DNA of 64,000 bases from Myxococcota bacterium (GTDB lineage: Bacteria; Myxococcota_A; Polyangia; Polyangiales; Houyiibacteriaceae): NCBI GenBank assembly GCA_020629955.1, contig JAHDCI010000002.1, forward strand, positions 2,692 through 66,691. The letters are read 5' to 3'. Below the pieces are notes generated by a model. The model did not search any database, was not told the DNA's origin, and saw only the letters and a program-made list of their open reading frames with translations. Each line of letters opens with the position of its first letter. The first letter of the stretch is position 1. The translations under genes were made by a program, and so were the position numbers. Of the stretch, positions 12,823-34,595 are shown piece by piece.

Positions 12823-12834
12823 GCCCCTTACGTT

Positions 12835-16782: not shown

Positions 16783-19077
16783 ATGAAGGGTCGAAACACG
16801 AAGTCGACAATCACCATTTGTTGCCTCCTCGTTCTGGGATGCAGCGAAACGAAGCCCCCGCTGACGGGCGGAAGCTCACCGGCGATGGAGACATGCGTTG
16901 GCGGCCGCGACGCAGAAACCGGCGAAGCGCTCGACTTCGAGTTAACACTCGACGGACAAACGAGACAGTCCTCTGACGGGCGTCTTTGCATTGAACTTTC
17001 CTCGCCAGAAGCGTTCGTACTCACCCATTCGGGACACCTTCCTGAGCCTTGGGTATTGAACCCTGGTGACGATTTCGAAGTCGACTTCTTCGCCGCAGAG
17101 AGTCATTCGAGTCTACATTTTGGCGGAGACGTCATGATGGGCCGCCGGTACGAGGAGCGATACTTTGCATCTGGAAATCGGGCTGAGGTTGCGCGTGAGC
17201 TCGTCGAACCGATTTCCCAGCTATTCGGTGCTGCCGATTTCTCCACTGTGAACCTCGAGACGGTCGCGACACTCGCGGGGCCGGAGGAGAGCTACCCAGG
17301 GAAACGCTTTCTCCTCAACACGCACCCGGAGGCGCTTTCCTTTTTGAACGCCCTCGGCGCAGACCTCGTCACTCTCGGAAACAATCACATTCGTGACTGG
17401 GGAGACGAGGGAGTTCGAGCAACCTTGGCATCGCTCGCAGAGGTTGGCATCGCGCAGACGGGCGGTGGCCTGAGCGAGGCAGAAGCAAACGCGCCCAATA
17501 TTACGACCCTCCCGAACGGACTTCGCGTCGGCACATTCTCTTGGACGACCGTGGCCGGCGACTTCGTCAATGAGCAGTACCCCGGCCCCAGCGCGACAGC
17601 GCCAGTCGATCTCGCGGAAGAGGACGCCTGGTTATACGAGCGTCGTTCGTTTGGATTCTCCTCGAGCTATTGGAATGTTCTGGAAACGGGTCGCCGAATT
17701 GGAGATGTCTGGGAACGGTTCAGGGAATCTGAGTCGTCGATGTCCGCTGCCGAGCGCGCGGAGGCGTGGGCGGCGATCGAAGCGGTCTTCCCCGAGATGC
17801 AAGATTGGGGAGCCCGACGCGGCCACGGCGGCGCTGCGGTGTGGAGTTCAAGTTCGGTCGAGGCGATCGAATCCCTTCGAAGCGAAGTCGACATCCTGAT
17901 CGTTCAGATCCACGCAGGTTTCCAGTTCGCGACGAGCCCTTCCGGAAACTCGAGAGCGCTCGCCCGCGCAGCGGTGGAAGCCGGTGCTGACCTGGTGATC
18001 GGCCATCACCCTCATGTTCTGCAGGGGCTGGAGTGGATCGACGGGAAGCTCGCCGCCTACAGCCTGGGGAACTTCGTATTCGACCAAGATTTTCATACGA
18101 CGTTTCCTGGCGCGATGCTTCGGACCGTGTTTCGAGGGGGAGAGCTTGTTCAAGCGAGGGTCATCGCGACGGTTCTCAGCGATTATCGAATCCAACCCGT
18201 TGGAGGGGTCAGCGCAGAACGGATCTACTCGGAACTCGAGCGAAGCTCCGCCGCGCCAATCGTCAGCCGCCGCTTTTCCGATCTTCGGGTCAGGGAGGTT
18301 CTTCGAGAAACGAGCGCCTCGTTGCGGGTGGATGATCGCGGGAGAATCTTGGCCGAGTCCCCCCAAACGCACGTTGTCGAAGCCTCGAGTGAGCAAAGAG
18401 TCGAGCCGAGCTACCTTATAAGTGGAGAAGGCGAGGTTGGCTTCGATCTCCTTGGTACGGGAAGCTTCGAGAGCGATTTCCATGGCGCTCTAGGCATGGG
18501 CTGGAGCCTCCGCCTGGAGGACAATGATAATGCGGATCGAGGCATCGGCGTCGTCGACGACGCGCTTCTCGGAAATCATGTGCTCAGGGTCCGGCGCACG
18601 GTTGCAAACCTGGGCGAGATCCTCACCCGGCCCGTCGCTCGCGTTCCTCTGCGCGCGCATCGACGTTTTGACGAGGGCGGGGACGCGCTCGACCCCGAAG
18701 CCCGTTTCGAGGTTGTCGTTGGAATTCGATCGACCGGCAGAGCAGATTGCCCTGCGAGTGTTCGCGTCGACTACTACCAATTACGAGATCAAGACCCAAC
18801 GATGAATCCCGTGAGCGAGGTGCTCGGCACAGAAACCCATACGCTACCGTTTTCAGCCGATTGGCAGCGCGCGCGACACGAGCTAACGCCACCGGCGGAC
18901 GCAAACTTCGCCCTCATCTATCTTCGCCTAGAGCCCCCGGAGGAGTGGACCTGTATTGCGGAGTTTGACGACGTACGGGTGATGGAATGGAGATCTGCGA
19001 GCGCGAACTCCACCTACGCACCGGTCACTCATGTTGCGCCCGGGGCTGTTGTAAACCTCGCTCATACGGTCAACTAA
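16783..19077 (+). CDS. capA: CapA/PgsA-family (PGA_cap metallophosphoesterase-fold) lipoprotein
   Basis: Lipobox VLGC; FGGDVM, VNLET, LGNNHIRDWG, QIHAG, IGHHPHV, YSLGNFVFDQ; ~90-aa insert and extra C-terminal beta-sandwich-like domain. Confidence 0.9.
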   Translation: MKGRNTKSTITICCLLVLGCSETKPPLTGGSSPAMETCVGGRDAETGEALDFELTLDGQTRQSSDGRLCIELSSPEAFVLTHSGHLPEPWVLNPGDDFEVDFFAAESHSSLHFGGDVMMGRRYEERYFASGNRAEVARELVEPISQLFGAADFSTVNLETVATLAGPEESYPGKRFLLNTHPEALSFLNALGADLVTLGNNHIRDWGDEGVRATLASLAEVGIAQTGGGLSEAEANAPNITTLPNGLRVGTFSWTTVAGDFVNEQYPGPSATAPVDLAEEDAWLYERRSFGFSSSYWNVLETGRRIGDVWERFRESESSMSAAERAEAWAAIEAVFPEMQDWGARRGHGGAAVWSSSSVEAIESLRSEVDILIVQIHAGFQFATSPSGNSRALARAAVEAGADLVIGHHPHVLQGLEWIDGKLAAYSLGNFVFDQDFHTTFPGAMLRTVFRGGELVQARVIATVLSDYRIQPVGGVSAERIYSELERSSAAPIVSRRFSDLRVREVLRETSASLRVDDRGRILAESPQTHVVEASSEQRVEPSYLISGEGEVGFDLLGTGSFESDFHGALGMGWSLRLEDNDNADRGIGVVDDALLGNHVLRVRRTVANLGEILTRPVARVPLRAHRRFDEGGDALDPEARFEVVVGIRSTGRADCPASVRVDYYQLRDQDPTMNPVSEVLGTETHTLPFSADWQRARHELTPPADANFALIYLRLEPPEEWTCIAEFDDVRVMEWRSASANSTYAPVTHVAPGAVVNLAHTVN

Positions 19078-19261
19078 ACGAACCTAACCATCGAAACTGC
19101 GTTCGCTCCACAATGGCGTTGAAGTCAAAAAATCACGTCCAAACAGGAATTCGTGAAATACGGACATCCAATTTGTTGAACTTTTCTTCTCAAAGAAAAT
19201 TTTCACCAAATTGGGTGGCATCGAGTTGAAGAGCGCCGGGCGCGCATGTTAAAACCCCAAA

Positions 19262-20572
19262 ATGGTCAAATGGATGAAGATGGGTTGGGTGTTGGCGCTT
19301 GCGGGCTGTGTGAACGGCTCCGTATCGTCCAACTCTCCGATGGCGGTGGACGCGGACGAAGACGGCGACGGCGTTCCGGCGTCGGCCGATTGCGACGATT
19401 CGAACGCAGCAGTGGGCGCTTTGCTCTATGCGGAAACGTTCGATGACCCGAGCGAATACCTCGAAAATACCTCAAGTCTGACGGACCCCTGGGCGGTCGG
19501 TGGTGGGCTCGCACGAAACTGGGTCGGCGGACAGCAAGCGCTGGTTGGCGAGAATGAGAGCTGGACCGATACGGTCACGTTCGCGACGCTCCGCGGAGAA
19601 GGGCTTCATGTGAAATGTCGAAACTGTGCCCACGCCGCGCGCCCCACTCCAGGGGACGACGGATACTCCTTTGTACTCTCGGGACTCTACGAGGACGGCG
19701 TCGCCACGGCGATTCTTCTCAACGACGACGCCGTGCTGCGTGTCAACCGTGACGAAGGCTGGGTGACACTCGAGGGTACTGCCAGCGCAGAGGGGGGAGA
19801 GACCTTCGAGGTAAACCTTCGCTGGGAAATCCGTGGACGCGGCGACGCTTACGCGGGTGACCTTGGACCGGATGTGCAGACCGATCTGCAAACGGAAGAG
19901 GTTGTCGCGGAGTGGGAATACCTCGACCTCGTTTCGGGTTCGCTCATCTCCGATTCCACGGAGATCCTCCTTTCTGCGGGTGCAGAGCGCCCGGCTCAGC
20001 TGGGCTGGAAAGCCAACCATCACACGGTGAGCTACGGACTCGCCAGCGGGCTCACCTACGAAGTTGACGGTCGGATCGGCAGCGGGGATATGAAGCTTGA
20101 GTTGCTCGAACGTGACCGTTTCCGCGCTGGAATTCTCGCGCGAATGAACCACGACGCCGACCAGGGCGAGGGCTTTCATGGCTATCGTTGCGCGGTCGCA
20201 CGGAACTCTCAGCTTGGCTGCTACGAGCCTGGCCGATTTGTGCAGCTCGCCGCTTTCCTCGACGGACCGGAAGGTGCCGTTCAATCCGAGTGCTCCCTCG
20301 ACCGGTGCGCACCGAATCCAGGCTTCGATCAGCTCGATCGCGAACCGCGTGGGGAGAGCACCGACCTAATCCTCGGCGATGGCGCAGACCTCACATTCTG
20401 GGCTGTTGGCAACTCGCTCCAGTGCGAGTTCGCAGGAGAAGACGGCGAACGAGTCGTGACCAGCGCCACCGATGACCGAATTCAGACCGGCGGGACCGGG
20501 CTCTCGGTGCTGAATCTCTTCACCCAATACGAGTCGGTCAGGGTCTGCCAGGCGTTCCATATCCCGGAATAG
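19262..20572 (+). CDS. Lipoprotein with DxDGDG..DCDD metal-binding motif and beta-sandwich domains
   Basis: Lipobox LAGC; DADEDGDGVPASADCDD motif; Cys pairs; followed by a terminator. Confidence 0.8.
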   Translation: MVKWMKMGWVLALAGCVNGSVSSNSPMAVDADEDGDGVPASADCDDSNAAVGALLYAETFDDPSEYLENTSSLTDPWAVGGGLARNWVGGQQALVGENESWTDTVTFATLRGEGLHVKCRNCAHAARPTPGDDGYSFVLSGLYEDGVATAILLNDDAVLRVNRDEGWVTLEGTASAEGGETFEVNLRWEIRGRGDAYAGDLGPDVQTDLQTEEVVAEWEYLDLVSGSLISDSTEILLSAGAERPAQLGWKANHHTVSYGLASGLTYEVDGRIGSGDMKLELLERDRFRAGILARMNHDADQGEGFHGYRCAVARNSQLGCYEPGRFVQLAAFLDGPEGAVQSECSLDRCAPNPGFDQLDREPRGESTDLILGDGADLTFWAVGNSLQCEFAGEDGERVVTSATDDRIQTGGTGLSVLNLFTQYESVRVCQAFHIPE

Positions 20573-20589
20573 CACCAACCCAAACGGTC

Positions 20590-20786: not shown

Positions 20787-23084
20787 TTGTTCGATATTTT
20801 TCCCACAAACGGGCTCGATAGGAGCATCCTCGCGCCGGTCTTGGTCGGGCTCTCCTTCACAGCGCTTCTAACCGAGACATGGGGCTGGTCCTTTGTCGCA
20901 TTGGTGGTCCCAGGCTACCTCGCGGCGGTTTTTGTCGCCGCGCCGTGGAGCGCGGTCGCGATTGTGATCGAAGCGATCGCCACCTACGGGTTAGCGCATC
21001 TACTCGGCGACGTTCTTCCCCGTCGCGGCCTGTGGACCATGTCATTTGGACGAGAACGCTTCCTTCTGCTGGTCATCTTGAGCGTGATTGTCCGACTCGT
21101 GTTCGAAGGATGGTTGCTTCGACTCGTTGCCCCCTCGATCGCCCCCGAGATCGCCGGTTCGTTCTACAGCGTCGGTTTGGTTCTCGTGCCTCTCACGGCC
21201 AACGCCTTTTGGAATACGGGCTTCAAACGAGGGCTCTTTCACACGGGCAGCATCACCGCCCTTACCTACGCGACCTTGGTGTTGGTTCTTCTTCCCTTCA
21301 CCAACCTCAATCTTTCCGAACTCGAGGTCACGTACGAGACCGTCGCCCTTCATATGCTGGAGACGCCGCGGATGTACATCATTCTGATCTGCGGTGCGCT
21401 CTTTGCGACCGCGATGAATGTCCGATACGGATGGGACTTCGCCGGAATTTTGGTTCCCGGCCTACTCGCTGTCGGGTGGTATAGCCCGACCAAGATCGCA
21501 ACCACGTTCCTCGAAGCGTGGGTCGCAGTGCTCATCTCGAAGCAGATCGTGAAGCTGCCCTATTTCGCTTCCCGAACGATTGAGGGGCCTCGCCGGCTGC
21601 TGCTCATCTACGTCGTCGCGTTCAGTATGAAATGGATCGCAGGCCTCCTGGCGTTCGAGACGCATCAGAGCTTTCAAGCGACGGAGCTCTATGGGTTTGG
21701 CTACGTCTTGCCCTCACTCCTCGGGGTGAAGATCTGGCAGCGTGAAAAGACGATAGGAATTCTGCTTCCCACGCTCGCTGCGAGTCTATTCGGCTTCCTC
21801 TCGGGCAATCTCATCGCCTTTCTACTCGCGGTCTCGGCGGGCCCACCAGCGGCCCAGGTCGAAGCGCAAATGGGCGCGTCCGAACAGCGACGAGCGCTCC
21901 TCGATGGCAGCGCCTGGACCCTCCGCGATCCAAGCGCGGAGGAGGAAAGCGAGAGGCTCATCTTCATCCGGGATCTCGAAGGGATTCACCTTACCTCCGC
22001 TCTCCGCATTCAGCCCTTCTCGGACGGCTCACGTCTGATCTCCGCGACGGATGCTGGCGGAGTTGCACTCTGGCGACGCGAGTCCGGCGAAGGAGCCTTG
22101 GTCGTGGAGACGGCTCCAGATAGTGTCCTGCGCGCCCTTGTTCCAGAAATCGCGGAAGCATCCGGCGCTCGAGATATCTGGCTTCTTCGGGAACCTGCCC
22201 CTGAAGGTGTTCTCGAAGGAAATCCGCGGGCGCGCCTTGAAAATGGTCGCCTCGTCACCGACGTAGAGACACCCCTCCGCGAGCTGAGCGAAGACGAGCT
22301 TCGAGAGCGCGCGGCCGCGAATCTTCCCGCGCCGGAGCGAGAAACCCACCCGAGTCTGCAGCAGCTTCTCCTCGACGCGAGCGAGCAAATCGAAACGGAT
22401 TCCCCGTACCATCCCGCCGATGAGACCACCCTCCGCGCATTTAGCGCGGAGATTTCCCCCGAGACAGTCCTCGACCCATGGCGTAGCCGGAGGGCGATCC
22501 ATTTCGGGCTCGTCCCATTTTCGACGGCCGACGGCTGGACAGGGGTCCGAGAAGCATCGCCGCGCGGGATGATCTGGGCGAAACGAGATTCCTCAGGCCC
22601 CACCTTAACCCTTCCCTACCCGGAAGGTCGTAGTGGAATGGTCGAAGCTCTGAGCGAACTGGCGAACCGAACAAGCGCGAGCGAAATCATCTTTGCGGGA
22701 GCGGCGCGACCTCTTCAGCCCGACCACGGTCGCATCGCGCTACGAGCCCCCTCCTATTCTCTACGCGCCACGGAACTTGCGCTGGGCGCGGGCCAGGATG
22801 TTTGGATCGTCCGCGATATTCCCACGCATCACGAGCGCTGGAATACCGACATCATCGTCACGCCGAACGAAATCGAGCCGGGCTTTGAGTCGGAGATCGC
22901 CACGCTCTTTCCGGACTTCCAGGTCGTTCCCTTCGATCACTCATTCGACATGTTTCCCTTCCGTGGGGCAGGGGACCCGGCGTTTGCGTGGATTCGGCTC
23001 TTCGCACCTGGGCGCGGTCGCATTCTTTGGATCTCGAGCCGAATGCGCTCAGAACTCCTCCTTCAGCGCCGAGGAACCCCATGA
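20787..23084 (+). CDS. capC: PgsC/CapC-family membrane protein (two CapC units) with large C-terminal soluble region
   Basis: Two CapC signatures: GLSFTALLTETWGWSFVALVVPGYLA and GALFATAMNVRYGWDFAGILVPGLLA; ~10 TMs then ~410-aa soluble tail; TTG start. Confidence 0.85.
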   Translation: MFDIFPTNGLDRSILAPVLVGLSFTALLTETWGWSFVALVVPGYLAAVFVAAPWSAVAIVIEAIATYGLAHLLGDVLPRRGLWTMSFGRERFLLLVILSVIVRLVFEGWLLRLVAPSIAPEIAGSFYSVGLVLVPLTANAFWNTGFKRGLFHTGSITALTYATLVLVLLPFTNLNLSELEVTYETVALHMLETPRMYIILICGALFATAMNVRYGWDFAGILVPGLLAVGWYSPTKIATTFLEAWVAVLISKQIVKLPYFASRTIEGPRRLLLIYVVAFSMKWIAGLLAFETHQSFQATELYGFGYVLPSLLGVKIWQREKTIGILLPTLAASLFGFLSGNLIAFLLAVSAGPPAAQVEAQMGASEQRRALLDGSAWTLRDPSAEEESERLIFIRDLEGIHLTSALRIQPFSDGSRLISATDAGGVALWRRESGEGALVVETAPDSVLRALVPEIAEASGARDIWLLREPAPEGVLEGNPRARLENGRLVTDVETPLRELSEDELRERAAANLPAPERETHPSLQQLLLDASEQIETDSPYHPADETTLRAFSAEISPETVLDPWRSRRAIHFGLVPFSTADGWTGVREASPRGMIWAKRDSSGPTLTLPYPEGRSGMVEALSELANRTSASEIIFAGAARPLQPDHGRIALRAPSYSLRATELALGAGQDVWIVRDIPTHHERWNTDIIVTPNEIEPGFESEIATLFPDFQVVPFDHSFDMFPFRGAGDPAFAWIRLFAPGRGRILWISSRMRSELLLQRRGTP

Positions 23085-25588
23085 GCAAGACTCGACCAGT
23101 GCTCTTTCTTGCAGCTGTGCTCGCATTCGGGATGTTGGCCGCTTCGTTCTTGCCACGCGAGATCTTTCGAGGGGAATCAGCGCCTATCGAGCTCGATCAT
23201 ACGTCGCTCTACAGCGTAGCGATCGACTCGCCCCTCGCGCTTGAGATCGAACCCGGAACCCGATCCCTTCGGCTCCACGTCGTACCCGAAGTCGGCCGGC
23301 CGGAGACGTATCTCCCAGAGGACCGCATCCCTTTTGCGTTCGACGTTCGGTTCGAGCAAAACGGTGAGGAGCTCCTATCGCGGCAGGTGGAGATGGATAC
23401 CCGGATCAGCATCTCCGACGATGTGCCGCAGCCGTCCTCCTTTCGGGGGACGCAGCTGGAAGGTGGGTGGGCCGGCGACAACCGGGGACTTCGGCTCGCC
23501 GTGCCCGAAAGGATTCGGCAATCCGGCGGGACCCTACGTCTGATCGCCGGTCGCGGTCCGTATCGCAGACTTCTGGTTCGAGGCTTCGCGCATTTTGACA
23601 CTCCGGCACGTCCATCTTCGACGCGCGTGGCTGCGAGAGAAGCACCCGCGAGTTATGTCGGAAGCTCACTCGGGGCTCGCGATCTACCCAGTGAGCTTCA
23701 CGAGCGGCGGGTCAATGAACGCGTAGCGCGGCTCGTTCCGCGGCACTCTCAACCCCGCCGGCGGGCCACCTTCAGCCCCTATCGGAGGCCGTGGTTTGAT
23801 GCTTCGCGCCCCGAAGCGAACGCGCTCATTACGTGCGGGCCCAATCGGTGGGTCGCAATCAACTTCGAAGGCGAACTTCCACTTGGCATCTCCGCGGAGG
23901 CGAACACAAGGGTCAGCCTGGATGGAGAAGAAATCTCGGTCGGGACGGCTCCCGTGGAGCGGATTCTCCGTGCGCGGGGCCCTCGAACATTGACGCTTCG
24001 GTGTGAGACCCAGACCGCCCTTAGGCTGTTCACGAACGAACAAGGAACGCGCGCGTTGATTGGAGAGAGAGAGCGTATCTTGCCGGTGGGCCAAGATCGT
24101 TTCTACCTTCTCCCCGACCTCCGGCGCGTCTGGTTCTACCAGCTCAATGCAGATTCCCCCGTGGAGGTTCCATCGGTCGAAGTCGAACGCGAAGTGGTCG
24201 TCGAGTTGCGGGGCAAGATCGCAAGCGAAGAAGGCTTCTCCGCCATCGACGCGACGATTCGGACGCGGGATTCCGAAGGACGGCTCGTCAGCGAACTCCC
24301 AGTGCATCTGAACAAAGAGCGGTCCTTCTACGAATACTTCCGAGATGGAGACGGGACAAGCCAGGAATGGCGGCAACGCATTCGTGTCGCTGCGGGTCAT
24401 CGCGTCGAGATCTCGGGAAGCCCCAACACGTGGGTGCGCTTAAAGGCCGTTCACGAAGACACGATGGAACGGACGCGCAGTCCTTGGCGCGAAGACCTCG
24501 TCGGCAGCGACAAAGGCTGGCTATTTGAACCGCGGGAGCTGACCGCCCTCGCGCGAGTCCGCCCCGTCGATTACAGCCGGCTCGCCCGAGAGGGGCGGCT
24601 CGAACGTCTGGTCGAACAAGTCCGCCTTGAACAACTTGATGAAGGAGAAGATGCGGCGGCCATGGAAGAGGCCCGAAATGCGCGTCTAAGGTCCACGCAG
24701 GCGAGTGAAAGCCCCGACCAAACGACTCCTCCCGTCGCGCTTCGGGACGAAAACGAACCCGCGGAAAACGCCGAATCGAACCGGGACACGGAAAGCCGTA
24801 CCGAGCGCGCGAGGGTAGCTCACTGGCGCCCGCGCTACGCGCGTTCAATTCGACCGATCGGTGACGTCATCTCGCAACGCGTGCTGACCCAAACCCTCGG
24901 TCGGCCGAGCCACTACTGGGCGCCGATCACGAGCTCTCGCCGCTACCTATCGGGCGGTTTGGCGACGTACGTTTGGCTGCGTCCGGAACGTCTCGGAGAA
25001 CAGGTCAGGCTCTTTATCAACGGCGAACAACATCTCGAAACACGCATCTCCAGCGAACTTCAGCGGTTTCGCATCGCACTTCCCGCGGAGCCCTCATCGA
25101 TCGAGGTTCGAGGCATCGGAACAGGTGAAGCCTTTACCAACGCGAACCCCGTCGAGGGCAGCGTCTACCGGCGCGACCGATTCTTTGAGCTGCGCCGCGA
25201 TGGGTCGCTGGAATTCGAATTCGATGCGGAACCCGGCGAACGCCAGTCCGTGGTGCTTCAAGTGCTGACCGAGAACCCGGGGGAGCAAGTGGCGCTCTCC
25301 TACGAACAGACAGGCGGGACCGGGCTCGGGACCGGAAGCCAACGGCGAATCGCGGACCGCTGGCGACGAGGTCGATTTGTCGATCTGCAGCAGGAAGATC
25401 CGGGCTTCATCAAGGCGATTGTCCCTTTCGGGATCGCGAGCAACGCGCGAACCCGCCGGCTTCGGCTTCGGTGGGAACGAGACAGGTCCGACGACACGTC
25501 TTCGCGGCTCTGGGTACGAGCCGTCGTCGTAAGCGATCGTCCGCGCGCAGACCGAAACTCAACACGCGTTCGAAGTGTGCTCCGATGA
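23081..25588 (+). CDS. Large exported/membrane-anchored hypothetical protein of the PGA locus
   Basis: ATGA overlap with capC at 23081-23084; N-terminal hydrophobic anchor (VLFLAAVLAFGMLAASFL); beta-strand-rich. Confidence 0.8.
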   Translation: MSKTRPVLFLAAVLAFGMLAASFLPREIFRGESAPIELDHTSLYSVAIDSPLALEIEPGTRSLRLHVVPEVGRPETYLPEDRIPFAFDVRFEQNGEELLSRQVEMDTRISISDDVPQPSSFRGTQLEGGWAGDNRGLRLAVPERIRQSGGTLRLIAGRGPYRRLLVRGFAHFDTPARPSSTRVAAREAPASYVGSSLGARDLPSELHERRVNERVARLVPRHSQPRRRATFSPYRRPWFDASRPEANALITCGPNRWVAINFEGELPLGISAEANTRVSLDGEEISVGTAPVERILRARGPRTLTLRCETQTALRLFTNEQGTRALIGERERILPVGQDRFYLLPDLRRVWFYQLNADSPVEVPSVEVEREVVVELRGKIASEEGFSAIDATIRTRDSEGRLVSELPVHLNKERSFYEYFRDGDGTSQEWRQRIRVAAGHRVEISGSPNTWVRLKAVHEDTMERTRSPWREDLVGSDKGWLFEPRELTALARVRPVDYSRLAREGRLERLVEQVRLEQLDEGEDAAAMEEARNARLRSTQASESPDQTTPPVALRDENEPAENAESNRDTESRTERARVAHWRPRYARSIRPIGDVISQRVLTQTLGRPSHYWAPITSSRRYLSGGLATYVWLRPERLGEQVRLFINGEQHLETRISSELQRFRIALPAEPSSIEVRGIGTGEAFTNANPVEGSVYRRDRFFELRRDGSLEFEFDAEPGERQSVVLQVLTENPGEQVALSYEQTGGTGLGTGSQRRIADRWRRGRFVDLQQEDPGFIKAIVPFGIASNARTRRLRLRWERDRSDDTSSRLWVRAVVVSDRPRADRNSTRVRSVLR

Positions 25589-26487
25589 CGCACCCTCCAC
25601 AAAGACGGGCATCGTTTCGTGTGCTCATGTGCATCCTCGCATTCGCATGCGGAACCAATCCACGTCCAGAGATGCGGAGCCGAACTCTCGCCGGAATCCT
25701 GCGATGGTCGGGGGATCCGAACGCAAAACTCTCCACGCCTTCCTCGCGACGGCAGACCGCGGTCCGAACTTTTCTAGCAGGGCGCGGAGTCGACGCCGTC
25801 CCGGAAGGTTCGCGCTGGGTGCCCTTCGGCAACGACGAGTACGCGCTCATCGAAGCTGGGGAGCATCGTGGCGATGGGGTGACCATCTACCGACGGGAAG
25901 CTGAGAGCGAGCTGATCGTTCAAGCTCCACATCGGTATTTCGATCGCCAAACTCTCCCTATCGCGCAACGCCTTTACCGTACATTGGGCGCACGGGCGCT
26001 CCTCGTAAACTCGGTCCACCGCTACCGCGGGGACGATTGCGACGCCCGTGAAGATTGCGCGTCGGACGTGGTCCGAAATTCATCCTCTATCTTTCATGCT
26101 GCGCATCGCGGGCTGATGCAGGCGCACCCTGGAGCAACCGTCCTTGCCATTCACGGGTTCGCGGCGAGAGAGGGCGAACCGGATATCATCCTGAGCGCGG
26201 GCGGGACACGTACCGAGCTTGTTTGTCTCGCGCGTGAGCTGCGAGAGCTCACGAGCGGACCTTCCCTGGGAATGTATCCAAGCGAGATTCGGCGACTTGG
26301 GGGTGTGCGCGGAGAGCAAGCCAAAGACTTGAGACAGCGGGGCGCTCGCTTCGTACATCTAGAGCTCAGCGAAGCGCTGCGGGAAACTCTGGTCGAAGAC
26401 TCGAGTCTCCATACCGAACTCGGCGAAGCGCTTCGCACGTGCCTGCTATCGCCGACACACGAACCCGAACGGTTCGAGATCCCATGA
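25585..26487 (+). CDS. Putative Zn-dependent gamma-PGA hydrolase-like (PghP-fold) lipoprotein
   Basis: ATGA overlap; lipobox-like AFAC; motifs IVQAPHRYFD, VLAIHGF, FVHLELSEALR parallel the PghP-family APHGGGIE / SxHG / QLExS..LR pattern. Confidence 0.6.
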   Translation: MTHPPQRRASFRVLMCILAFACGTNPRPEMRSRTLAGILRWSGDPNAKLSTPSSRRQTAVRTFLAGRGVDAVPEGSRWVPFGNDEYALIEAGEHRGDGVTIYRREAESELIVQAPHRYFDRQTLPIAQRLYRTLGARALLVNSVHRYRGDDCDAREDCASDVVRNSSSIFHAAHRGLMQAHPGATVLAIHGFAAREGEPDIILSAGGTRTELVCLARELRELTSGPSLGMYPSEIRRLGGVRGEQAKDLRQRGARFVHLELSEALRETLVEDSSLHTELGEALRTCLLSPTHEPERFEIP

Positions 26488-29400
26488 GCCGTCGACTCTT
26501 CGCCTGGGCGCTGTCGACGTTCTTTTGCTTGGCATCGCTCCAATCCGCGAACGCGCAGGCTCCACTCGAGATCAGTCCGACCACGTTTGGCCCCTCAGTC
26601 CATCGCATCGACGCGCCACGCGGGAGCTCCCTCGAGGTACGCGGCGAGTTCGAACAGCTGGGGTTGCTCTTCGGTGACAACTCCGAAGCGACCGTCCTCT
26701 GGCTCGACCGCTCCCTGGGCCGAATTGTGGATCTTCCTCTTTTGGGTCCGCGCGCATCCCTTGCGGTGCGCTCAAACGCATCGTTCGAGGTATGGCGACG
26801 AAACGCCCAACCGCGCGAAATGGAACGCCTCCGCGAGGAACAGAGCATTCTGCGTGGACAAGCGAGCGATGGCGCAGTCCACGAAAATGACAGCCTCCTT
26901 TTGTCAGCGCGAGACGCGATCGCACAGGCCTATCCGAATGCGAGCGAAGCGTCGCAGCGCGCGTTTCTCCAGCGTCTCGCAGCACTCGAACGGGTGAAGG
27001 AGGGCGATCTGAGGGCCGCGCCCTTTTTCCGCCGACATATGCGCTCGGAATATTCTCTCGAGGCCGGCGACCGCCATCGCATCGTGGGGAGCCATGATTT
27101 GTCTCGCCTTCGATTTTCAGGTCGCGGGCGAGTCATCGTTCGAAACGCCGGGCGCATTATCACCGAACGGGATATTCGCTCGGGCTTTTCTCTACGGGTT
27201 GCGGGTAACGCCACCGAGGTGGAAGTCACCACCGGCGAGGTCGAACTTCGCGTGGACACGTGGCACGTGCTCAGGCCTGTGTTCGAACGGACCGCGCCGG
27301 GCGACGACGCACTCGGGGATCTCGCTCGCGCCTTCGATCGTTCTCTCGGCGCGTCCGAACCCGGTGAGATTCGAACCAGCGCTTGGAGCTCCGCTTGGAT
27401 TCGTTTCCTCTTCGAAGATCCTCAATCTTGGCCTTCGGGCATGTTTGCCTCGAGCCCCGCGTGGCTTCGTTTTCTGCTTCTCGAACGACTCGCCGAACGT
27501 TCGCCAACTCTTCCGCCGCGTTTCGATTGCAGCTCCACGCCGCTCGAAGAAGAGATGAGCAACGCCAGAACGCTCGTAATGCGAGCCGCGCAAAAGCTCT
27601 TCTGCGGGGACCTTAGCGGGCAGCGCGATCTGATACGCGCGGTCGGGCTCGCTCAAGAATCCGATTCGAGACTGCGCAGGGTCGCTCAAAACCTCTCTAG
27701 GCTACTCACCGCCAGGCGAGTCCAAGCGCCAAGCGGCAGCGTTCATCGTTGGAGCACGCCAAGCGAAGCTTCCGGTACCTGCAGACTCCGCGAAGATGAT
27801 CGCGAGTTCTGGCTCAAGGTCACCGAGCATCGCTTTCTCACGAGAAATCCGGGGGAGCTCCGAATCTACTCCCCAACCATCGAAACGACGGTGCAAGTGG
27901 ACGGCGAGCACCTGGGTGTCCATGGGCTATTCGGATGGATTTCGCGGGTACCGATCGACGCAGGTCACCATCGTATCGAAAGCGCCGAAGAGATCTTGGT
28001 TCAACTCCCCGGAGAGCACGAAGTCCCGTGCAACCAGCTGGTCAGCGTTCGGCGAGAGCGACGCTTAAATGAACCTGTTCGTTACGATCTTGGCGCGTTT
28101 GCACCCGGTCGCGTTCAAGTGCGACTGCGAGGCGAGATGAGGCGAGCTCAAATTCGTGCTGGCAGCGGGTCGATGGAACTCCACCGCGCGACCTCCGGGG
28201 AGCAAGGTCGCTGGGTTGAGTTGCCGGCCGCATTGATCGCCTCCGCCTCGCTCGAGATCATTCCTCTCGATTCCGCCACCGGCCCCTCAACGGTCGATGT
28301 CCGCGCATTCCAGTTCCGCATGGAGTCGCCAACGCTATCTGAAGGGGAGCCCGAAGATCACGGCCTCAATCCCCTATCGCGGGAGGATCATCTCGACGCG
28401 CTGCGGAACGTGACCCGAGCTCTCTCGGATCGGCCGACGGATGAAGAGCTCCGCCTTCGTCGTTTCGAGTTCTTGCGCGAACTAGGCGCGAATCGGCTTC
28501 TTGAAGAACTTGAACTTCCGTCTCAAGCGCAGCGTTTCTCATCGGCGCCCCGCGAACCTAGAACCAATCGCGCAGGCCGCATTCCCGGAGTTTCATGCGA
28601 TGATCTTCGAACCGCACAACGACTTCGACGCGCCTGGGAGGATCGGGATCTGGACGAAGTTCTCGCACTCTCTGCTACCCCGCGTGACGGCGTGCAGCGA
28701 ATCTATCGTGCACTCGCGCTCGAAGCGCGAGAGGAGCTTTTGGCAGCCGCAGAGCTTTGGGAGCAACTCTCGCACCCGTCTGCCCTCGAGGAGTCACTTC
28801 GCCTGCGGATCGCACACGCGCACGGACAAGAGGATGAAGAGCAGGGGCGATATGCAGTCTATCTCGACGCGCTGATTCGATCTGAAATCGAGGCCCCTCG
28901 CCGACAGGCGCTGATCGGAGAACGAAGCTTTATCCCAATCGGTGGCGCGCGGGGTTCAGCGGGATCGCGTATCGCCGTGCGAGCGCGAGAGGCTCATACG
29001 CGATCGGAGTCAATTCTATCCGCGTATTTGAACGCGCCGCCGGATGCGATCCTCGTTGCGCAAGGAGACGCATTGGTTGTCGAGAATTCGCCGACCGAGC
29101 TCGCCTTTGAGTTTGGCTGTGAACCGACGGAGCGCGAGTGCGTAGCGCGGCTTGCGAACGAAAACGGCGACCCGATTTCCCATGGACGATCGCCGATCCG
29201 GGTCGCACTCGATGAGCGGCAGGTCATCCTCGAAGCCGAACACACAATGTGGGTCCGTTTCTCGAGCGACACGCCGATTGACTACGTTCGCCGACGCTTC
29301 GAGCTTGAGGCGACCGCAGAGCATCCGGTGCAGCTCCGCGTCGCAGGTCCGACCGCGCTACAGATCCGGTCCGCGAACCCAGAGCACTTGCGATTTGAGA

Positions 29401-30578
29401 TCCTGCGCAGCGACGGGAGCCGAGTGCCACTTGAAAGCGCCCGGTTTCAGCAAACCCTCGAGCTTCCAGTTCCGGAGGGGGAGCAAGCGATCTGGATTCA
29501 CGCGAGCCGCCGAGAGAGCTTCAGCGCACACCTCGTGCAACTTGATTCCGTCTACTCGCCACGATCCACAGAACCCGAGGTCGAGACCGCCCATCCTTCT
29601 ACGTTCGACTGGTCCGCAATCCCGACGCGCGGCGTGCGCACAGAGGGCACTGCTGGGACGATTGGCATCATGAGCGCGGAGGTGCGTGCGACGGTCAATA
29701 TCGAAGACGTGAGAAACGTCGATGCCGCCGCCAACGGTTCTCCCCACCTCGAGCTACTCGCGCGCGCGATGCGGCGCGAGGGACGCTTTCGATTTGAGTT
29801 CGGTGGTCTCGCAAGATTGCGCTTCGGGCCGCCATCGTTCGGCGCGTTTGCGCGTCTCGATTGGCGAGGGGGACGCAACTTGCCAACCTTCATCGCGCGA
29901 GGCCGGGTTCTCGCTCAGAACCTCGACACCTTCCGAGTGTCCGCCCACGGGACGCTGCTTGGGCTCTGGCATATCGCAGCACACGCGAAGTTTCGACTCT
30001 ATCCCTACGCTGCGCTCGACCTTGTTTCCGTAGGGGCCGAGCCGCCAGTAGGAGAGCAAGGCACCGATCCCGATGTCTACCTGCGCTGGTACCGAGATCA
30101 TCCCTGGACCCTCCGCGCGGGGCTAGCCTTCTCGTACCGACCGGCACTCGACCTGCTCTTTCGTGGGCGCGTTCAAGCACGCACGAACTCGGAGTGGCTG
30201 AGCGTCGATCGGATCGATCTGCAGGGTCGAGTCGACCTCGTTGCCGGTTCTGGGTTGTTCCCGCGCTTCGCTGCCGACTACCTACTTTCCTATCGATTCG
30301 CAGATCCTCAACGCCCCTTCCGAATCGTCCGCCATATCGTTGGCGTCGAAGCTCACCTCTGGCATTGGTGGCGACCACGCGGACGCGTCGCGCTCGGGGC
30401 CCGTTTCGAGTGGATCGCAGACAACAGCTCGTTCGCCGGCTTCATCACGCTCTCTCAACTTTTTTCACCTCATCGTGGCGTTCAGGATCTTCGGAGCGCA
30501 GAGGCGCCCTTCGCGGCGCGACTGAGCGAAGGGCAAGGCGCGACTCTCGATGCTCGTAGGAGTGACGATGACTTTTGA
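26484..30578 (+). CDS. Large Sec-exported protein with helical/TPR-like segments and probable C-terminal outer-membrane beta-barrel
   Basis: ATGA overlap; signal peptide ending ANA-Q; last ~290 aa are alternating amphipathic strands (FRFEFGG, FARLDW, LRAGLAFSY, FAADYLLSYRF, VALGARFEW). Confidence 0.7.
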   Translation: MSRRLFAWALSTFFCLASLQSANAQAPLEISPTTFGPSVHRIDAPRGSSLEVRGEFEQLGLLFGDNSEATVLWLDRSLGRIVDLPLLGPRASLAVRSNASFEVWRRNAQPREMERLREEQSILRGQASDGAVHENDSLLLSARDAIAQAYPNASEASQRAFLQRLAALERVKEGDLRAAPFFRRHMRSEYSLEAGDRHRIVGSHDLSRLRFSGRGRVIVRNAGRIITERDIRSGFSLRVAGNATEVEVTTGEVELRVDTWHVLRPVFERTAPGDDALGDLARAFDRSLGASEPGEIRTSAWSSAWIRFLFEDPQSWPSGMFASSPAWLRFLLLERLAERSPTLPPRFDCSSTPLEEEMSNARTLVMRAAQKLFCGDLSGQRDLIRAVGLAQESDSRLRRVAQNLSRLLTARRVQAPSGSVHRWSTPSEASGTCRLREDDREFWLKVTEHRFLTRNPGELRIYSPTIETTVQVDGEHLGVHGLFGWISRVPIDAGHHRIESAEEILVQLPGEHEVPCNQLVSVRRERRLNEPVRYDLGAFAPGRVQVRLRGEMRRAQIRAGSGSMELHRATSGEQGRWVELPAALIASASLEIIPLDSATGPSTVDVRAFQFRMESPTLSEGEPEDHGLNPLSREDHLDALRNVTRALSDRPTDEELRLRRFEFLRELGANRLLEELELPSQAQRFSSAPREPRTNRAGRIPGVSCDDLRTAQRLRRAWEDRDLDEVLALSATPRDGVQRIYRALALEAREELLAAAELWEQLSHPSALEESLRLRIAHAHGQEDEEQGRYAVYLDALIRSEIEAPRRQALIGERSFIPIGGARGSAGSRIAVRAREAHTRSESILSAYLNAPPDAILVAQGDALVVENSPTELAFEFGCEPTERECVARLANENGDPISHGRSPIRVALDERQVILEAEHTMWVRFSSDTPIDYVRRRFELEATAEHPVQLRVAGPTALQIRSANPEHLRFEILRSDGSRVPLESARFQQTLELPVPEGEQAIWIHASRRESFSAHLVQLDSVYSPRSTEPEVETAHPSTFDWSAIPTRGVRTEGTAGTIGIMSAEVRATVNIEDVRNVDAAANGSPHLELLARAMRREGRFRFEFGGLARLRFGPPSFGAFARLDWRGGRNLPTFIARGRVLAQNLDTFRVSAHGTLLGLWHIAAHAKFRLYPYAALDLVSVGAEPPVGEQGTDPDVYLRWYRDHPWTLRAGLAFSYRPALDLLFRGRVQARTNSEWLSVDRIDLQGRVDLVAGSGLFPRFAADYLLSYRFADPQRPFRIVRHIVGVEAHLWHWWRPRGRVALGARFEWIADNSSFAGFITLSQLFSPHRGVQDLRSAEAPFAARLSEGQGATLDARRSDDDF

Positions 30579-30744
30579 CAAAAGCACGGATGAGCGGGCT
30601 CAGCGACGAGCGTGCAGCGCGCTCTGCACCGAGCGCGTAAACGGAGTTGGTCTCGCCGACCTGCTGCGACAGTCGCCGTTCTTCTTCGGAAGTGAGCTGC
30701 ACGTCGACCTCAGCTCCGGGCCTCTCGAAAGGCGAACCAGATGA
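30568..30744 (+). CDS. Small 58-aa ORF coupled between the barrel gene and capB
   Basis: ATG overlaps the end of the upstream gene by 11 nt and its TGA overlaps the capB ATG (ATGA), filling the only gap between capC and capB. Confidence 0.5.
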   Translation: MTFDKSTDERAQRRACSALCTERVNGVGLADLLRQSPFFFGSELHVDLSSGPLERRTR

Positions 30745-33700
30745 CAAAGCAGAAGTCTCTTCTCGGGAATGCTCTATCGCGCCTCCATCCCCTTCGACAA
30801 AAGATCGCGCGGCCCTTTGTCGAACACGAGGTCGATCAGATCGCGGGAGATAGACTTGAAGCCCACTTTCGCGGCCGGCTAAGAGACGTTCTGGCGCTTC
30901 TCACCTCCCTCGAAGGGATCGAATCGGAAATCAACGCGAGCCAGCCGGGCAATCTTGAGGCGCGACTTCAGCAAAGTGATTTGCCGGGTATGCGATTTGG
31001 GGAGGTGGCGCGCGACGCGGATGCCGCGCTGGATCGATTGATCCTAGTGCGAAGTCGCCTCGAAAAATACGCCTCCGCGTCCATCGAGATTCTTCGGAAT
31101 GACGCCGAATCGAAGCCGGAGATCGTTCACGTCGCGACGCACCTCGGGTTGAGTGAGCGACTTCGACGCGTCGCCGTCGACTGTCTCCACGAGGTCACGA
31201 AAACGGATCTTGAGCGGCTCGTTGCGCAATGTTCTCCGTCGAAAGTCGGACCTCTTCTCGGGCGTGCGTTGATGGACTGCGTCGCGCGAAACGACGAGAA
31301 GATCGCCGTGAAACTCGCGCTGCGCGTCGCCGCGACTCGATCGACGAGCGACCCCGTTCTTTGGCGGTCCCGCGCGGTTGAGATCTTGACTCGCTTTCGC
31401 AGCCTACCGGAGGGTGTTCTTCAAGATCCAAGCGAGCTCGTCAGGCAATCTCTCGCCAAGACGCTTGGAGAGATGGGCGAATGGCGTCGTCTGATCGCGA
31501 TCGCACGGAACGATAAGTCGCCCATCGTCCGCGCCTACGCATGGACCCGGCTCTCCCAAGAGACACCCACCACAGGTGCGATTCTCGCAGCGTTCCGCGA
31601 TCCCTCGCCGCTTGTGATCCGCGTCGCACTCGACGAAGTAGAGCATCGACTCCCGCAGTTCTCGAGCGCCGAGCGAGAGGACCTCGCGAATGAGCTTACC
31701 CGGGTCAGTGGGATCGACGACTCGGAGGTCGCTTATCGCGCTCTGGCGCTGCTGCGAGAGCTCACCCGCTACGACGATCCAAAGCTGGATGCGTTGATCC
31801 GCGAGATCAAGACGCGATCGTATGGCCTCTCGCTCGGCGCAACGCTGCGAGTCGAGGAGGGGGATACGCCAAGACTTCGAAGAGCTCTTCGCAGCTTATC
31901 GAGGCGAGGGGTGTACTTTGGTGCCCGAAATATCCGAAGCGGAACATGGGAGATTCAGGTCGGTCGAACGGCTCGTTACGATGCAGGGCGGGCCTGGTAC
32001 GAATGGAAGCACCCGCGTCCAGACAAGCGACAGAATATCGCACACGTCACGACCCGTCAGCTCAAGGCGGATATCGTTTCACCCGCACCATGGATGGGGG
32101 AGCTGACCGCGACGAAGGTCCCCGGTGAACCACGGTCGATCAAAAATGCGGGGGGCACCGGAGCCTACTTGCCGACAGTCGGCGACCTGCGAGCAAGCCT
32201 CACCAGCATGACCGAGTTCGTTACCCCCGCCGGCATCACCACGTTGGTTCCCCCTCGCTCATTTTGGGCCCGCCTGAAACTTCGCCGGAAGCTCGCCGGA
32301 GAGTTTGACGCACTCGCGACACTGCGCGAGCGGTGCCTTGAAAGCGGTGATGGGGTTGCGCCAGAAGCCTACGCCACCCGGCTTCGCGAGCTTGGATTCT
32401 CACTCAGCTTCAGCTCCGATCCAGAGACCATCTGTGGAAAAGAACGGACCAGTGTCTTTGCGCCAGCAATTCGGTGCCTTGAGCCTGCTCATCTCGCCTT
32501 GCCGCCGATCGTCGATTCGATCGCCAGATTTGTCGCCGACCCGACCGCAGGAAATGGCGGAGGCCCCCTCCTCGCATTCCTCCTCGCCGTACTCCTAGGT
32601 TTCTTCGTCCGCTCGCTCTACCTCCGCCGCCGAATTCGAAACGTGGTCGAGTCCATCCCGCTTCGACTCGCTGGGTGGGGGACCCGCGGTAAGTCGGGAA
32701 CCGAGCGTCTAAAGGCAGCCATGCTCCAAGGCTTCGGCTGCGATGTTCTGGTCAAGACCACGGGCTGTGAAGCGATGACGATTCGGCAGACCCCTGGCAA
32801 AACCTCCGTCGAGGTGTTCCTTCACCGCCCGTACGATAAGGCGACGATTTGGGAGCAGGTACGGGTCTTGGAGATGGGATCGACGATGGGAGTCGATGCG
32901 TTTCTTTGGGAATGCATGGCCCTTCGCCCGAGATACGTAGACGTCTTGGCGCATCACTGGATGCAATCGAGCGTCTCCACGCTTACCAACGCCTACCCTG
33001 ATCACGAGGATGTCCATGGTCCGGCAGGGATCAACGTCGCGGAAGTCATGGGCGGGTTCATTCCCCCCAAAGGACTCTGTATCTCGGCAGAAGAAGAAAT
33101 GTTGCCGCTCCTAAAGGCGGAAGCCGCGCGACGGGAGTGTCGCTTCGAATCCGTCTCCTATTCCGACTCCGCGCTGATCCCGAGCGACCTCATGAACCGA
33201 TTCCCGTACCAGGCGCATCCTCGGAACGTTGCCCTCGTAGCCAAACTGGGCGCGCACCTCGGGCTCTCTCGGATCGACGCAATCGTCGCAATGGCCGATC
33301 ACGTTGTCGCCGATCTCGGTGTGCTCAAAACCTACGGAACCGTCGAGCATGCCGCCCGACGGCTGCGCTTTTCGAACGGTATGAGCGCGAACGAACGGGC
33401 AGGCTGCCTCAGCAACTGGAAACGCCTTGGTCTTCACACCCACGAAGGCGACCGAACCAAAATCGTCACCGTGATCAACAACCGCGGAGACCGCATCCCG
33501 CGCTCGCGCGTGTTCGCTGACATCGTCGTTAAGGATCTTGGTGCAAGCGCACATGTCTTGATCGGCACAAACCTCGGAGGCATGCGGCAGTACATCGAAG
33601 AGTCCCTGGACCACTGGCTTCAGGAGCAAATGATCGCTCTTCCCGAGGAAGACCCGAGCGCACCGGGGACGCGAGTCAAGATCATCGAACGATTGGCGTA

Positions 33701-34595
33701 TATTCTTCATCGTCGCCTCGGCGTTTCGCGATCCCCCAACGCGCTTCTTGAATCCATTGCTCGGGTTCTCGATTCCGTTGATGCGGAGAGAGCAGACCGC
33801 CTCGTACCGGTATTTGAGGAGCTAAAGCCGGACCCACGAGAGATCGATCTCGAGGCTCTCCTCGCGAAGTGCCGGATCGCGCTCGAAGGAGATCCCAACC
33901 AACAGGATTGTGAGCGTTGGATCCGAACCATCGTCGAACGTCAAACCGCGCTTGAGGTGTTCGTGGATGAACTCCCCGATACCGTGGATGCAATCAACAA
34001 GAGCTTTCGCTCCTTTTATCGCGCGCGCTTCTTGGAATCCCTTCACGAAGTCGCCGATTCTCACGCAACCGGCGACCAAGTGATCGATGCCGCTGCGCGA
34101 GCCATCCCACCAGGACACGATGCGCATCTCATCGGAATCCAAAATATCAAAGGAACGGGGCTCGACTTTGTCTACCGCTGGGTAGATTTGGAGCGACTCC
34201 AATCGTTGAGCCCCGATCTTGAAGACGAACAGCGACGAAGGGCATCCCTGGCCGGCATTGAGAAGGCCCGGCTCGGCATCCTTGGAGGTTCGTGGCTGGT
34301 GGAGAAGCTCACCGAGCTCGGACTCCCGCCGGCCGATATCGAGCCCTTTGAGACGGCACTGGCGGAAGCTCGTGATAAAGCAAGTCGCGCCTCCGACGTG
34401 CGAGGTGGCATCGGCCCGTGGGTGATTTCGCGTGTCGAAGGGATCATCGATCCTCTTCACGCGCTCTACCGCGGTCACAAAGCGCGAACGCTCGAGAGCG
34501 AGCGCGCACTAGGCGTGATTGGCCATGAGGAAGCGGCCGAAAGAGCGCGAAAGCTTACGGCTCTCGAAAAGCCAGGGTGGCTATCCGCCAAGTAA
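30741..34595 (+). CDS. capB: PgsB/CapB poly-gamma-glutamate synthase fused to an N-terminal HEAT-repeat region
   Basis: Mur-ligase/CapB motifs IPLRLAGWGTRGKS, KTTG, WECMALRP, LTNAYPDHED, MSANER, NNRGDR, GIQNIKG; one TM before the ligase; HEAT units DPSELVRQSLA, DKSPIVRAYA, DPSPLVIRVAL. Confidence 0.9.
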   Translation: MTKQKSLLGNALSRLHPLRQKIARPFVEHEVDQIAGDRLEAHFRGRLRDVLALLTSLEGIESEINASQPGNLEARLQQSDLPGMRFGEVARDADAALDRLILVRSRLEKYASASIEILRNDAESKPEIVHVATHLGLSERLRRVAVDCLHEVTKTDLERLVAQCSPSKVGPLLGRALMDCVARNDEKIAVKLALRVAATRSTSDPVLWRSRAVEILTRFRSLPEGVLQDPSELVRQSLAKTLGEMGEWRRLIAIARNDKSPIVRAYAWTRLSQETPTTGAILAAFRDPSPLVIRVALDEVEHRLPQFSSAEREDLANELTRVSGIDDSEVAYRALALLRELTRYDDPKLDALIREIKTRSYGLSLGATLRVEEGDTPRLRRALRSLSRRGVYFGARNIRSGTWEIQVGRTARYDAGRAWYEWKHPRPDKRQNIAHVTTRQLKADIVSPAPWMGELTATKVPGEPRSIKNAGGTGAYLPTVGDLRASLTSMTEFVTPAGITTLVPPRSFWARLKLRRKLAGEFDALATLRERCLESGDGVAPEAYATRLRELGFSLSFSSDPETICGKERTSVFAPAIRCLEPAHLALPPIVDSIARFVADPTAGNGGGPLLAFLLAVLLGFFVRSLYLRRRIRNVVESIPLRLAGWGTRGKSGTERLKAAMLQGFGCDVLVKTTGCEAMTIRQTPGKTSVEVFLHRPYDKATIWEQVRVLEMGSTMGVDAFLWECMALRPRYVDVLAHHWMQSSVSTLTNAYPDHEDVHGPAGINVAEVMGGFIPPKGLCISAEEEMLPLLKAEAARRECRFESVSYSDSALIPSDLMNRFPYQAHPRNVALVAKLGAHLGLSRIDAIVAMADHVVADLGVLKTYGTVEHAARRLRFSNGMSANERAGCLSNWKRLGLHTHEGDRTKIVTVINNRGDRIPRSRVFADIVVKDLGASAHVLIGTNLGGMRQYIEESLDHWLQEQMIALPEEDPSAPGTRVKIIERLAYILHRRLGVSRSPNALLESIARVLDSVDAERADRLVPVFEELKPDPREIDLEALLAKCRIALEGDPNQQDCERWIRTIVERQTALEVFVDELPDTVDAINKSFRSFYRARFLESLHEVADSHATGDQVIDAAARAIPPGHDAHLIGIQNIKGTGLDFVYRWVDLERLQSLSPDLEDEQRRRASLAGIEKARLGILGGSWLVEKLTELGLPPADIEPFETALAEARDKASRASDVRGGIGPWVISRVEGIIDPLHALYRGHKARTLESERALGVIGHEEAAERARKLTALEKPGWLSAK

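Follow-up and report, generated by a model that had tools for sequence, protein, structure and literature searches.

PgsB, a member of the Mur-ligase superfamily, is to our knowledge paired with CapC solely in the synthesis of poly-gamma-glutamate (PGA), and the biology and biotechnology of PGA rest almost wholly on Bacillus. The synthase-dependent exopolysaccharide (EPS) systems provide another architecture, used below as an analogy. As for Gram-negative bacteria, Fusobacterium nucleatum is reportedly named, in the title of Candela et al. 2009, as the first Gram-negative polyglutamate producer, which by paper title makes it comparable to the case described here. This article deals with a cluster of seven genes, A to G, that includes capA-, capC- and capB-like genes and lies in a Myxococcota genome, on a stretch of 64,000 nucleotides (nt) of contig JAHDCI010000002.1 (assembly GCA_020629955.1), the whole of which is called the window hereafter.

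In the passages available, reviews treat PGA synthesis as a monoderm process relying on PgsBCA(E)/CapBCE and make no mention of an outer-membrane export apparatus for PGA; the portion consulted of a 2026 review (PMC13721041) describes polypeptide capsule synthesis for Bacillus only, and the reference lists of PMC4928254 and PMC4497714 cite one Gram-negative producer (Candela et al. 2009). Searches of open full texts, without supplements, retrieved no paper on a giant HEAT-PgsB, a tandem CapC or an outer-membrane PGA step, and papers containing pgsB, pgsC and Gram-negative all concern Bacillus, judged by their listing. The initial annotation of the window, which had been aware of no such apparatus in the literature, thus finds no matching paper set against it.

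We consider it on balance probable that the locus encodes a multi-component machine, present in more than one phylum and built around a PgsB/PgsC-type ATP-dependent amide ligase, whose product, a gamma-linked polyamide of glutamate or a glutamate-like residue, would be passed through the envelope. The catalytic identity of G and C, a PgsB-type ligase with its CapC partner, is well supported, and so is the link in function between C, D, E, F and G. From their sequences we infer the remainder, i.e. a gamma-glutamyl product, trimming by E and a role of F as outer-membrane conduit. The system is a real and conserved, apparently undescribed variant of PGA synthetase for bacteria with two membranes, associated with four families of no known function.

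Layout of the cluster and comparison with described systems

The features of the locus are as follows (lengths in amino acids, aa; ORF, open reading frame).

16783-19077, + strand: gene A, 764 aa, CapA/PgsA-like PGA_cap lipoprotein
19262-20572, + strand: gene B, 436 aa, Cys-rich lipoprotein of no known family
20787-23084, + strand: gene C, 765 aa, tandem CapC/PgsC followed by a C-terminal part
23081-25588, + strand: gene D, 835 aa, exported protein with an N-terminal anchor or signal peptide, no known family
25585-26487, + strand: gene E, 300 aa, exported, lipoprotein-like, enzyme-like protein
26484-30578, + strand: gene F, 1364 aa, secreted protein with signal peptide, no known family
29736-30473, + strand: candidate outer-membrane beta-barrel, residues 1085-1330 of F, from its strand pattern
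30568-30744, + strand: 58-codon ORF in the F-G spacer, no family, probably no gene
30741-34595, + strand: gene G, 1284 aa, giant PgsB-type amide ligase
32568-32624, + strand: hydrophobic helix of G, residues 610-628, the only one in this protein
34705-36609, + strand: gene H, 634 aa, OPT-family transporter

The initial annotation had placed capA-, capC- and capB-like genes on one strand, and this holds, A carrying PGA_cap, C carrying CapC and G a PgsB domain. It had also chained the genes into an operon by four ATGA overlaps. Three of these, at 23081 (C/D), 25585 (D/E) and 26484 (E/F), are genuine 4-base overlaps, but the fourth, at 30741, joins G to the 58-codon ORF only, F ending at 30578, 162 nt upstream of G. 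The spacers between A and B and between B and C measure 184 and 214 nt. A scan for promoters and terminators returned no promoter-like site and 14 terminator-like sites vs 18.7 expected. The stretch is contained in three DNA sequencing runs, all of one study, no RNA run being listed for it. Of the three large exported proteins announced between capC and capB, all three (D, E and F) are exported, but only D and F are large. Export signals at the N-terminus are lipoprotein-like in A, B and E, a signal peptide in F and one hydrophobic helix in D; B, D and F have no counterpart among the Pfam and NCBIfam families. The tiny ORF that had been noted between capC and capB drops out. Indeed, its product is not hydrophobic, has no tblastn match in any locus compared and belongs to no NCBIfam family. 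It is probably not a gene, and it was ruled out as an analogue of CapE/PgsE, being neither hydrophobic nor conserved.

Like the PgsBCA(E)/CapBCA(D)E systems of Bacillus, the window groups in one operon a PgsB-type ligase, a CapC-type partner and a CapA-type PGA_cap protein. The differences are nevertheless considerable: the ligase reaches 1284 aa, with an N-terminal HEAT-like domain of ~600 aa and a C-terminal domain of ~330 aa; CapC is duplicated and fused to domains predicted to be periplasmic; the gene order is A-B-C-D-E-F-G instead of B-C-A-E; no PgsE/CapE-like peptide was found in the locus, and most loci dispense with CapA; four additional families (D, E, F and X, the last a sensor gene found upstream of C in other genomes) are added, in a host with two membranes. 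As to capA, which had been taken as a component, it does belong to the operon of the window but lies outside the conserved core. The view of a compact Bacillus system to which export parts have been added therefore needs correcting, because CapA is accessory and because the ligase and CapC are themselves remodelled.

The likeness to the PgaABCD, Bcs, alginate and Pel systems is one of arrangement: an inner-membrane polymerase, periplasmic partners, one of them a candidate hydrolase, and a large secreted protein that may end in a barrel would be encoded by one operon. In contrast with synthase-dependent EPS systems, the locus has no glycosyltransferase and no TPR was detected in F, and the polymer would be a polyamide. 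There is also no detectable homology of F to the PgaA barrel, and PF21197 is absent from the genome. The initial annotation had expected a set of periplasmic hydrolase, TPR scaffold and barrel; the scaffold is the part that falls, no TPR family being found in F or in 5 of its homologues at E<=0.1, and the HEAT repeats belonging to the cytoplasmic part of G. Family scans of the cluster proteins revealed no c-di-GMP receptor domain, no search having been aimed at one. A synthase-dependent-like machine can thus be considered as a fair functional analogy, membership failing on the glycosyltransferase and the TPR scaffold.

Distribution of the cluster and of its ligase

The cluster was compared by tblastn, our own ORF calls and family hidden Markov models (HMMs) in 21 fully covered Myxococcota loci, the window included; 20 long-form loci were fetched, and their ORF lengths are upper bounds, taken from the first start codon after a stop. 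Genomes are designated by G numbers; G026 and G033 (short contigs) and G114 (C and D outside the fetched stretch) were excluded from the locus counts. According to the initial annotation, its reading would fall if the intervening genes did not accompany capB and capC elsewhere. They do accompany them: C, D, F and G are found in 21/21 Myxococcota loci and are colinear save in G067, where X-C-D and F-G are divergent. Upstream of C, the CHASE2 gene X is present in 11/21 loci, A in 6 and B in 4. Some of the genes are even fused in frame, D with E in G154 and G169, and E with F in G203.

With G as query, 9 of 41 relatives match, G003, G026 and G033 along nearly the whole length. In G003, which is related to the genome of the window at the family level and the source label of whose protein assigns the latter to Myxococcota, the order is A(end)-C-D-E-F-(two extra genes)-G, at 27-45% identity. 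The two extra genes of this genome (contig C14, L011:13247-17965) encode a WD40 beta-propeller protein (396 aa) and a 1117-aa protein of no family, and B is replaced by an HD-domain gene.

Across the phylum, 401 evenly sampled Myxococcota genomes were scanned, 120 of which match G at 1e-20. A long G is found in 42 of them, including that of the window (best E <= 8.7e-89), as frames of about 1150-3100 aa or as a pair of split genes, each of about 730 aa; G262 carries, in addition to these 42, a long G in two fragments. In the remaining 77 genomes, the match is limited to residues ~570-958 of G and the frames (about 250-870 aa) correspond to the classical short PgsB. Six loci of this type were fetched (G002, G004, G005, G008, G018 and G003:C2), and in 4 of them the classical short pgsB (frames about 400-870 aa) has a single capC next to it. 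Ordinary PGA genes thus also exist in Myxococcota without the D/E/F set. Canonical PF05908 PGA-hydrolase genes were found in 12/301 Myxococcota genomes, 7 of them of genus g3.

The C-terminal profile of F also detects 42 of the 401 genomes. F and the long G occur together in 41, G only in two (G125 and the fragmentary G262) and F only in one (G072, 86% complete); the tables were compared by eye, and kinship between genomes inflates any statistic drawn from them. F and the long G nevertheless go together almost without exception.

Outside Myxococcota, protein C was searched for in one genome per species, which yielded 17 loci, all from Sphingomonadales (Qipengyuania, Erythrobacter, Novosphingobium and Sphingorhabdus), with the layout X-C-short D (~260 aa)-E-G; A adjoins this core in none of the 17. 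F was detected in 9 genomes of a 301-genome sample of Pseudomonadota, 5 contigs of which were fetched. The full X-C-D-E-F-G is present in G488:C4. G493 keeps this order, its X being truncated where the contig ends; G492 shows X(part)-C-D-E-F, after which the contig stops, and G662 has E-F-G. The order C-D-E-F-G is kept across two phyla at 20-45% identity. Such conservation in more than one phylum puts the arrangement of the cluster far beyond chance.

The G family comprises at least 1920 clusters at E <= 1e-30, under the source names CapB, PgsB and 'HEAT repeat domain-containing protein', and its source labels include Myxococcota bacterium (the G003 contig), Polyangiaceae, Polyangium mundeleinium, Pendulispora rubella, Ca. 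Thiodiazotropha, Planctomycetaceae and Nitrosomonas. In an unrooted maximum-likelihood tree calculated from 49 PgsB domains, a 100/100 branch separates 43 giant from 6 short forms. With the root placed at the midpoint, the two stems that lie between giant and classical PgsB reach 3.31 and 2.98 changes per site, and the classical short pgsB-capC pairs of the same phylum differ from the giant ligase as a separate clade. The giant ligases of Pseudomonadota (those of Sphingomonadales and of G488, G493 and G662) form one group, sister to that of the Myxococcota genome G317 (100/100) and nested in the Myxococcota diversity. This hints at a transfer of the giant ligase between phyla, the direction of which is not set without a root.

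Components of the putative machine

Residues 615-955 of G correspond to a PgsB domain (TIGR04012, 1.1e-56, 192.2 bits, model positions 3-332 of 380), and the P-loop and the other ligase motifs are near-invariant in the alignment of the 11 usable G orthologues. The ligase is followed by a conserved domain of ~330 aa with a QNIKGTGLDFVYRW motif, according to the alignment, and preceded by a HEAT-like domain (~1-600) recognized through weak matches to HEAT families of Pfam. In G077 and G317, G is encoded as two genes, an N-half and a PgsB-half. The HEAT-like domain appears to be cytoplasmic, because these separately encoded N-halves have neither a signal peptide nor a membrane helix; for the same lack of an export signal, this domain was rejected as a candidate periplasmic scaffold.

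The partner of the ligase, C, begins with two copies of CapC (residues 1-350; PF14102, 2.7e-39, 134.7 bits vs a cut-off of 27, in 2 stretches) that contain about 12 hydrophobic segments. The ~400-aa C-terminal part that follows is of no known family and includes degenerate E-like domains. Comparison of the E family with residues 540-761 of C by hhalign gave a probability of 98.3% (E 1.8e-14, 238 columns), which identifies this part of C and E, as judged from their profiles, as paralogues. The invariant His and Asp of E are mostly missing from it, and the E-like domains of C may form a non-catalytic binding module. The C-terminal part of C is predicted to be periplasmic, because the loop charges in 19 orthologues are compatible, under the positive-inside rule, with a hand-drawn model of 12 segments that has both ends outside.

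The single hydrophobic helix of D covers residues 6-24. A short form of ~260 aa replaces D in Sphingomonadales and in G317, and an iterated HMM seeded by the short D reaches the D of the window at E 3.8e-23, so the short and long forms are homologous. Between D and F, hhalign gave a match of 58.7% over a beta-sandwich-like stretch (VDG...GxH); domains in common are thus suggested, not established.

The 14 orthologues of E have signal or lipoprotein starts and share 13 invariant residues: P115, H116, D120, T123, N142, R146, D161, H190, G191, S204, H258, E260 and R266. The resulting motif order, H-x3-D-x2-T ... HG ... H-x-E, resembles the HGGxxE..T ... HG of PghP/PF05908 (12 canonical Myxococcota members), and E has a match to PF05908 (Gamma_PGA_hydro; E 0.0011, 18.9 bits) under the Pfam gathering threshold of 22. 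E differs from these zinc peptidases in being exported and about 100 aa longer. That E is a metal-dependent polymer hydrolase is plausible but unproven. The genome G148, which has no E at the locus, carries a canonical PF05908 gene elsewhere, an anecdote and no test.

F is made of an N-terminal signal peptide, a beta-rich and helical middle and the barrel-candidate C-terminus. An N-terminal hydrophobic region is present in 86/100 full-length F homologues vs 13/102 G homologues. The 246 residues from 1085 to 1330 can be aligned in all 22 positional orthologues and contain about 13-14 amphipathic strands, counted by eye. Their dyad-amphipathic coverage (0.89) and mean score (1.02) are close to those of the reference barrels PgaA (0.87/0.94) and CopB (0.88/1.03), nine other domains having a lower coverage (0.32-0.72). 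Pfam CopB is matched by 2/22 of the C-terminal members, at E 0.059. As a lead only, the ESM Atlas feature neighbours of the C-terminus of the F homologue P0004 that bear a family name are all outer-membrane barrels (SlipAM, BCSC_C, Porin_4, YaiO and PgaA_barrel; score 0.84-0.85), the three nearest clusters being unnamed. A mean-field direct coupling analysis of 174 F C-terminal domains was dominated by gap and truncation artefacts, and strand pairing or closure could not be read from it. An outer-membrane beta-barrel at the C-terminus of F is, from these patterns, plausible but unproven. The C-terminal profile collects 1095 cluster representatives at E<=1e-3 and 1016 at 1e-10; among the 150 matches listed, the match is C-terminal and the proteins are mostly of 1300-1990 aa.

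Among the less constant genes, A carries a PGA_cap domain (residues 111-435; PF09587, 3e-60) followed by an extension of ~330 aa. Its lipobox is LVLGC and that of B is LAGC. B adjoins A in G174, G238 and G276, with a C-terminal part up to 58% identical, and both genes appear to be lineage-specific accessories; no PGA_cap was found in the genome G319 (97% complete). X, which is missing from the window, combines a CHASE2 sensor domain with PAS and histidine-kinase-like parts; among the 6 members scanned, the match to CHASE2 is above the cut-off in 2 and weak in a third. On the other side of the cluster, H is an oligopeptide transporter of the OPT family (PF03169, 6.5e-98), encoded on the same strand, 109 nt beyond the end of G. 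Uptake of gamma-glutamyl fragments would be a conceivable role, but a link of H to the system is unproven and it is not kept beside G elsewhere. Indeed, the search for a conserved gene downstream of G was negative, the 13 downstream ORFs having no family in common except in one pair of close relatives.

Farther away, the flanks of the cluster encode two sigma-54 activators, of which one has an FHA domain, together with two Ser/Thr protein kinases (1834-3225, 5218-7548, 12800-14368 and 58388-61684), a regulator mix that fits the Myxococcota label, and an 867-aa HEAT-repeat protein (7697-10300). A 2464-aa ORF on the minus strand (49326-56720) contains RHS repeats, has Tox-HDC as its C-terminal domain (PF15656, 24 bits vs a cut-off of 21) and probably encodes a polymorphic contact-dependent toxin.

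Proposed mechanism, alternatives and significance

At the inner membrane, G and C would most likely polymerize glutamate, or one of its close analogues, to yield a gamma-linked polyamide. The E-like domains of C, the anchored D and the exported E could constitute a module that handles and trims the polymer in the periplasm, and F, with its barrel-like C-terminus, might ensure passage through the outer membrane in Myxococcota and some Pseudomonadota. Where present, the CHASE2 sensor kinase X would regulate the system, and the cytoplasmic HEAT domain of G may be a regulatory or scaffolding add-on.

Various observations weigh against this scheme. The score of G against TIGR04012 is under the equivalog cut-off of 222.7, so that its substrate may differ, and C likewise reaches only 69.8 bits against the PgsC equivalog TIGR04011 (cut-off 96.45). 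The helix 610-628 of G is flanked by positive charges on the ligase side (lysine plus arginine 3.7 after vs 0.5 before). This makes the topology of G a puzzle, as the N-domain has no export signal, yet the ligase side would be cytoplasmic according to the positive-inside rule; both large domains may be kept in the cytoplasm by a helix that is re-entrant or interfacial. E was not detected in three of the 21 Myxococcota loci (G067, G077 and G148; present in 18), and only 2 of its 14 members match PF05908 at E<=1, below the threshold. Concerning the barrel, none of the 6 F members scanned has a Pfam family, except for one weak MalQ_N match, the C-terminus of F has no PDB match, and a conserved tail of ~35 aa follows the last predicted strand, which is thus not the end of the protein. 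More generally, sequence and profile searches of the PDB with G, E, F and D matched nothing real. The hhalign comparisons were also negative, for F with the PgaA barrel (4.4%) and CopB (3.4%) and for E with the 12 canonical Myxococcota PF05908 proteins (8% over 24 columns) and FGase (2%), but they carry no weight because the control comparisons score as low, CopB vs PgaA 1.4% and PghP vs FGase 2%, so that the method is blind at such a distance. Finally, F was found within 10 kb in 0/17 Sphingomonadales loci and, at E <= 0.01, in none of 5 whole Qipengyuania genomes, and in G629 it stands without other cluster genes within 20 kb. The putative outer-membrane barrel is therefore not universal.

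This last point keeps alive another explanation, in which a PGA-like polyanion stays in the periplasm or fixed to the envelope, where it would serve for instance for osmoprotection, for metal buffering or as a layer linked to the wall, E trimming or transferring the chains and F being a structural or binding protein anchored in the outer membrane. As Sphingomonadales have X, C, short D, E and G but no F, the core can work without a dedicated outer-membrane part; the two non-catalytic E-like domains of C could hold the polymer in the periplasm, and no TPR-porin architecture was detected. We nevertheless regard this explanation as unlikely: F and the long G are near-inseparable in Myxococcota (41 genomes with both vs 3 with one only), F is usually coupled translationally to G or E, and its C-terminus resembles a transmembrane barrel. 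It is also improbable, and distinctly so, that G and C ligate glutamate or another amino acid onto some other acceptor (peptidoglycan stem, lipid or protein) without making a homopolymer, D, E and F acting on that envelope component. The place of PgsB within the Mur-ligase superfamily, the scores of G and C under both equivalog cut-offs, the great distance of the giant clade from classical PgsB, as measured by its stems, and the large extra domains of G would agree with such a reaction. On the other hand, the PgsB-CapC pairing is not known outside PGA synthesis, a CapA homologue belongs to the same operon in the window and E faintly resembles PGA hydrolases. As for a fortuitous neighbourhood, in which unrelated exported proteins would have come to lie between capC and capB, the gaps of 162-214 nt at A-B, B-C and F-G and the lack of conservation of A and B as partners speak for it, but it is contradicted by the comparative data (the order C-D-E-F-G in two phyla at 20-45% identity, the fusions and the 4-base overlaps) and its probability is next to nil.

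If the proposed synthesis and export of a PGA-like polyamide is true, PGA-like capsules or slimes would be a frequent trait of Gram-negative bacteria, and the system would represent a further class of 'synthase-dependent' exopolymer secretion. The six-gene module would raise the questions of how an anionic polyamide crosses the periplasm and the outer membrane, of the roles of four large protein families of no known function and of the spread of PGA-like polymers in soils, sediments and symbioses. The system is directly testable, because cultured strains carry its reduced form (Qipengyuania proteolytica 6B39, Q. marisflavi KEM-5 and Q. zhejiangensis Z2) or, by source label, the giant ligase (Polyangium mundeleinium and Pendulispora rubella). 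It is conceivable, if still somewhat short of probable, that the cluster encodes a dedicated trans-envelope pathway, the first one for a non-ribosomal polyamide, combining a giant PgsB-CapC synthase, novel families in the periplasm (D, E and the E-like domains of C), outer-membrane barrels of a novel family (F) and control by a CHASE2 kinase and HEAT domains, and that it would be carried by thousands of genomes of environmental diderms.

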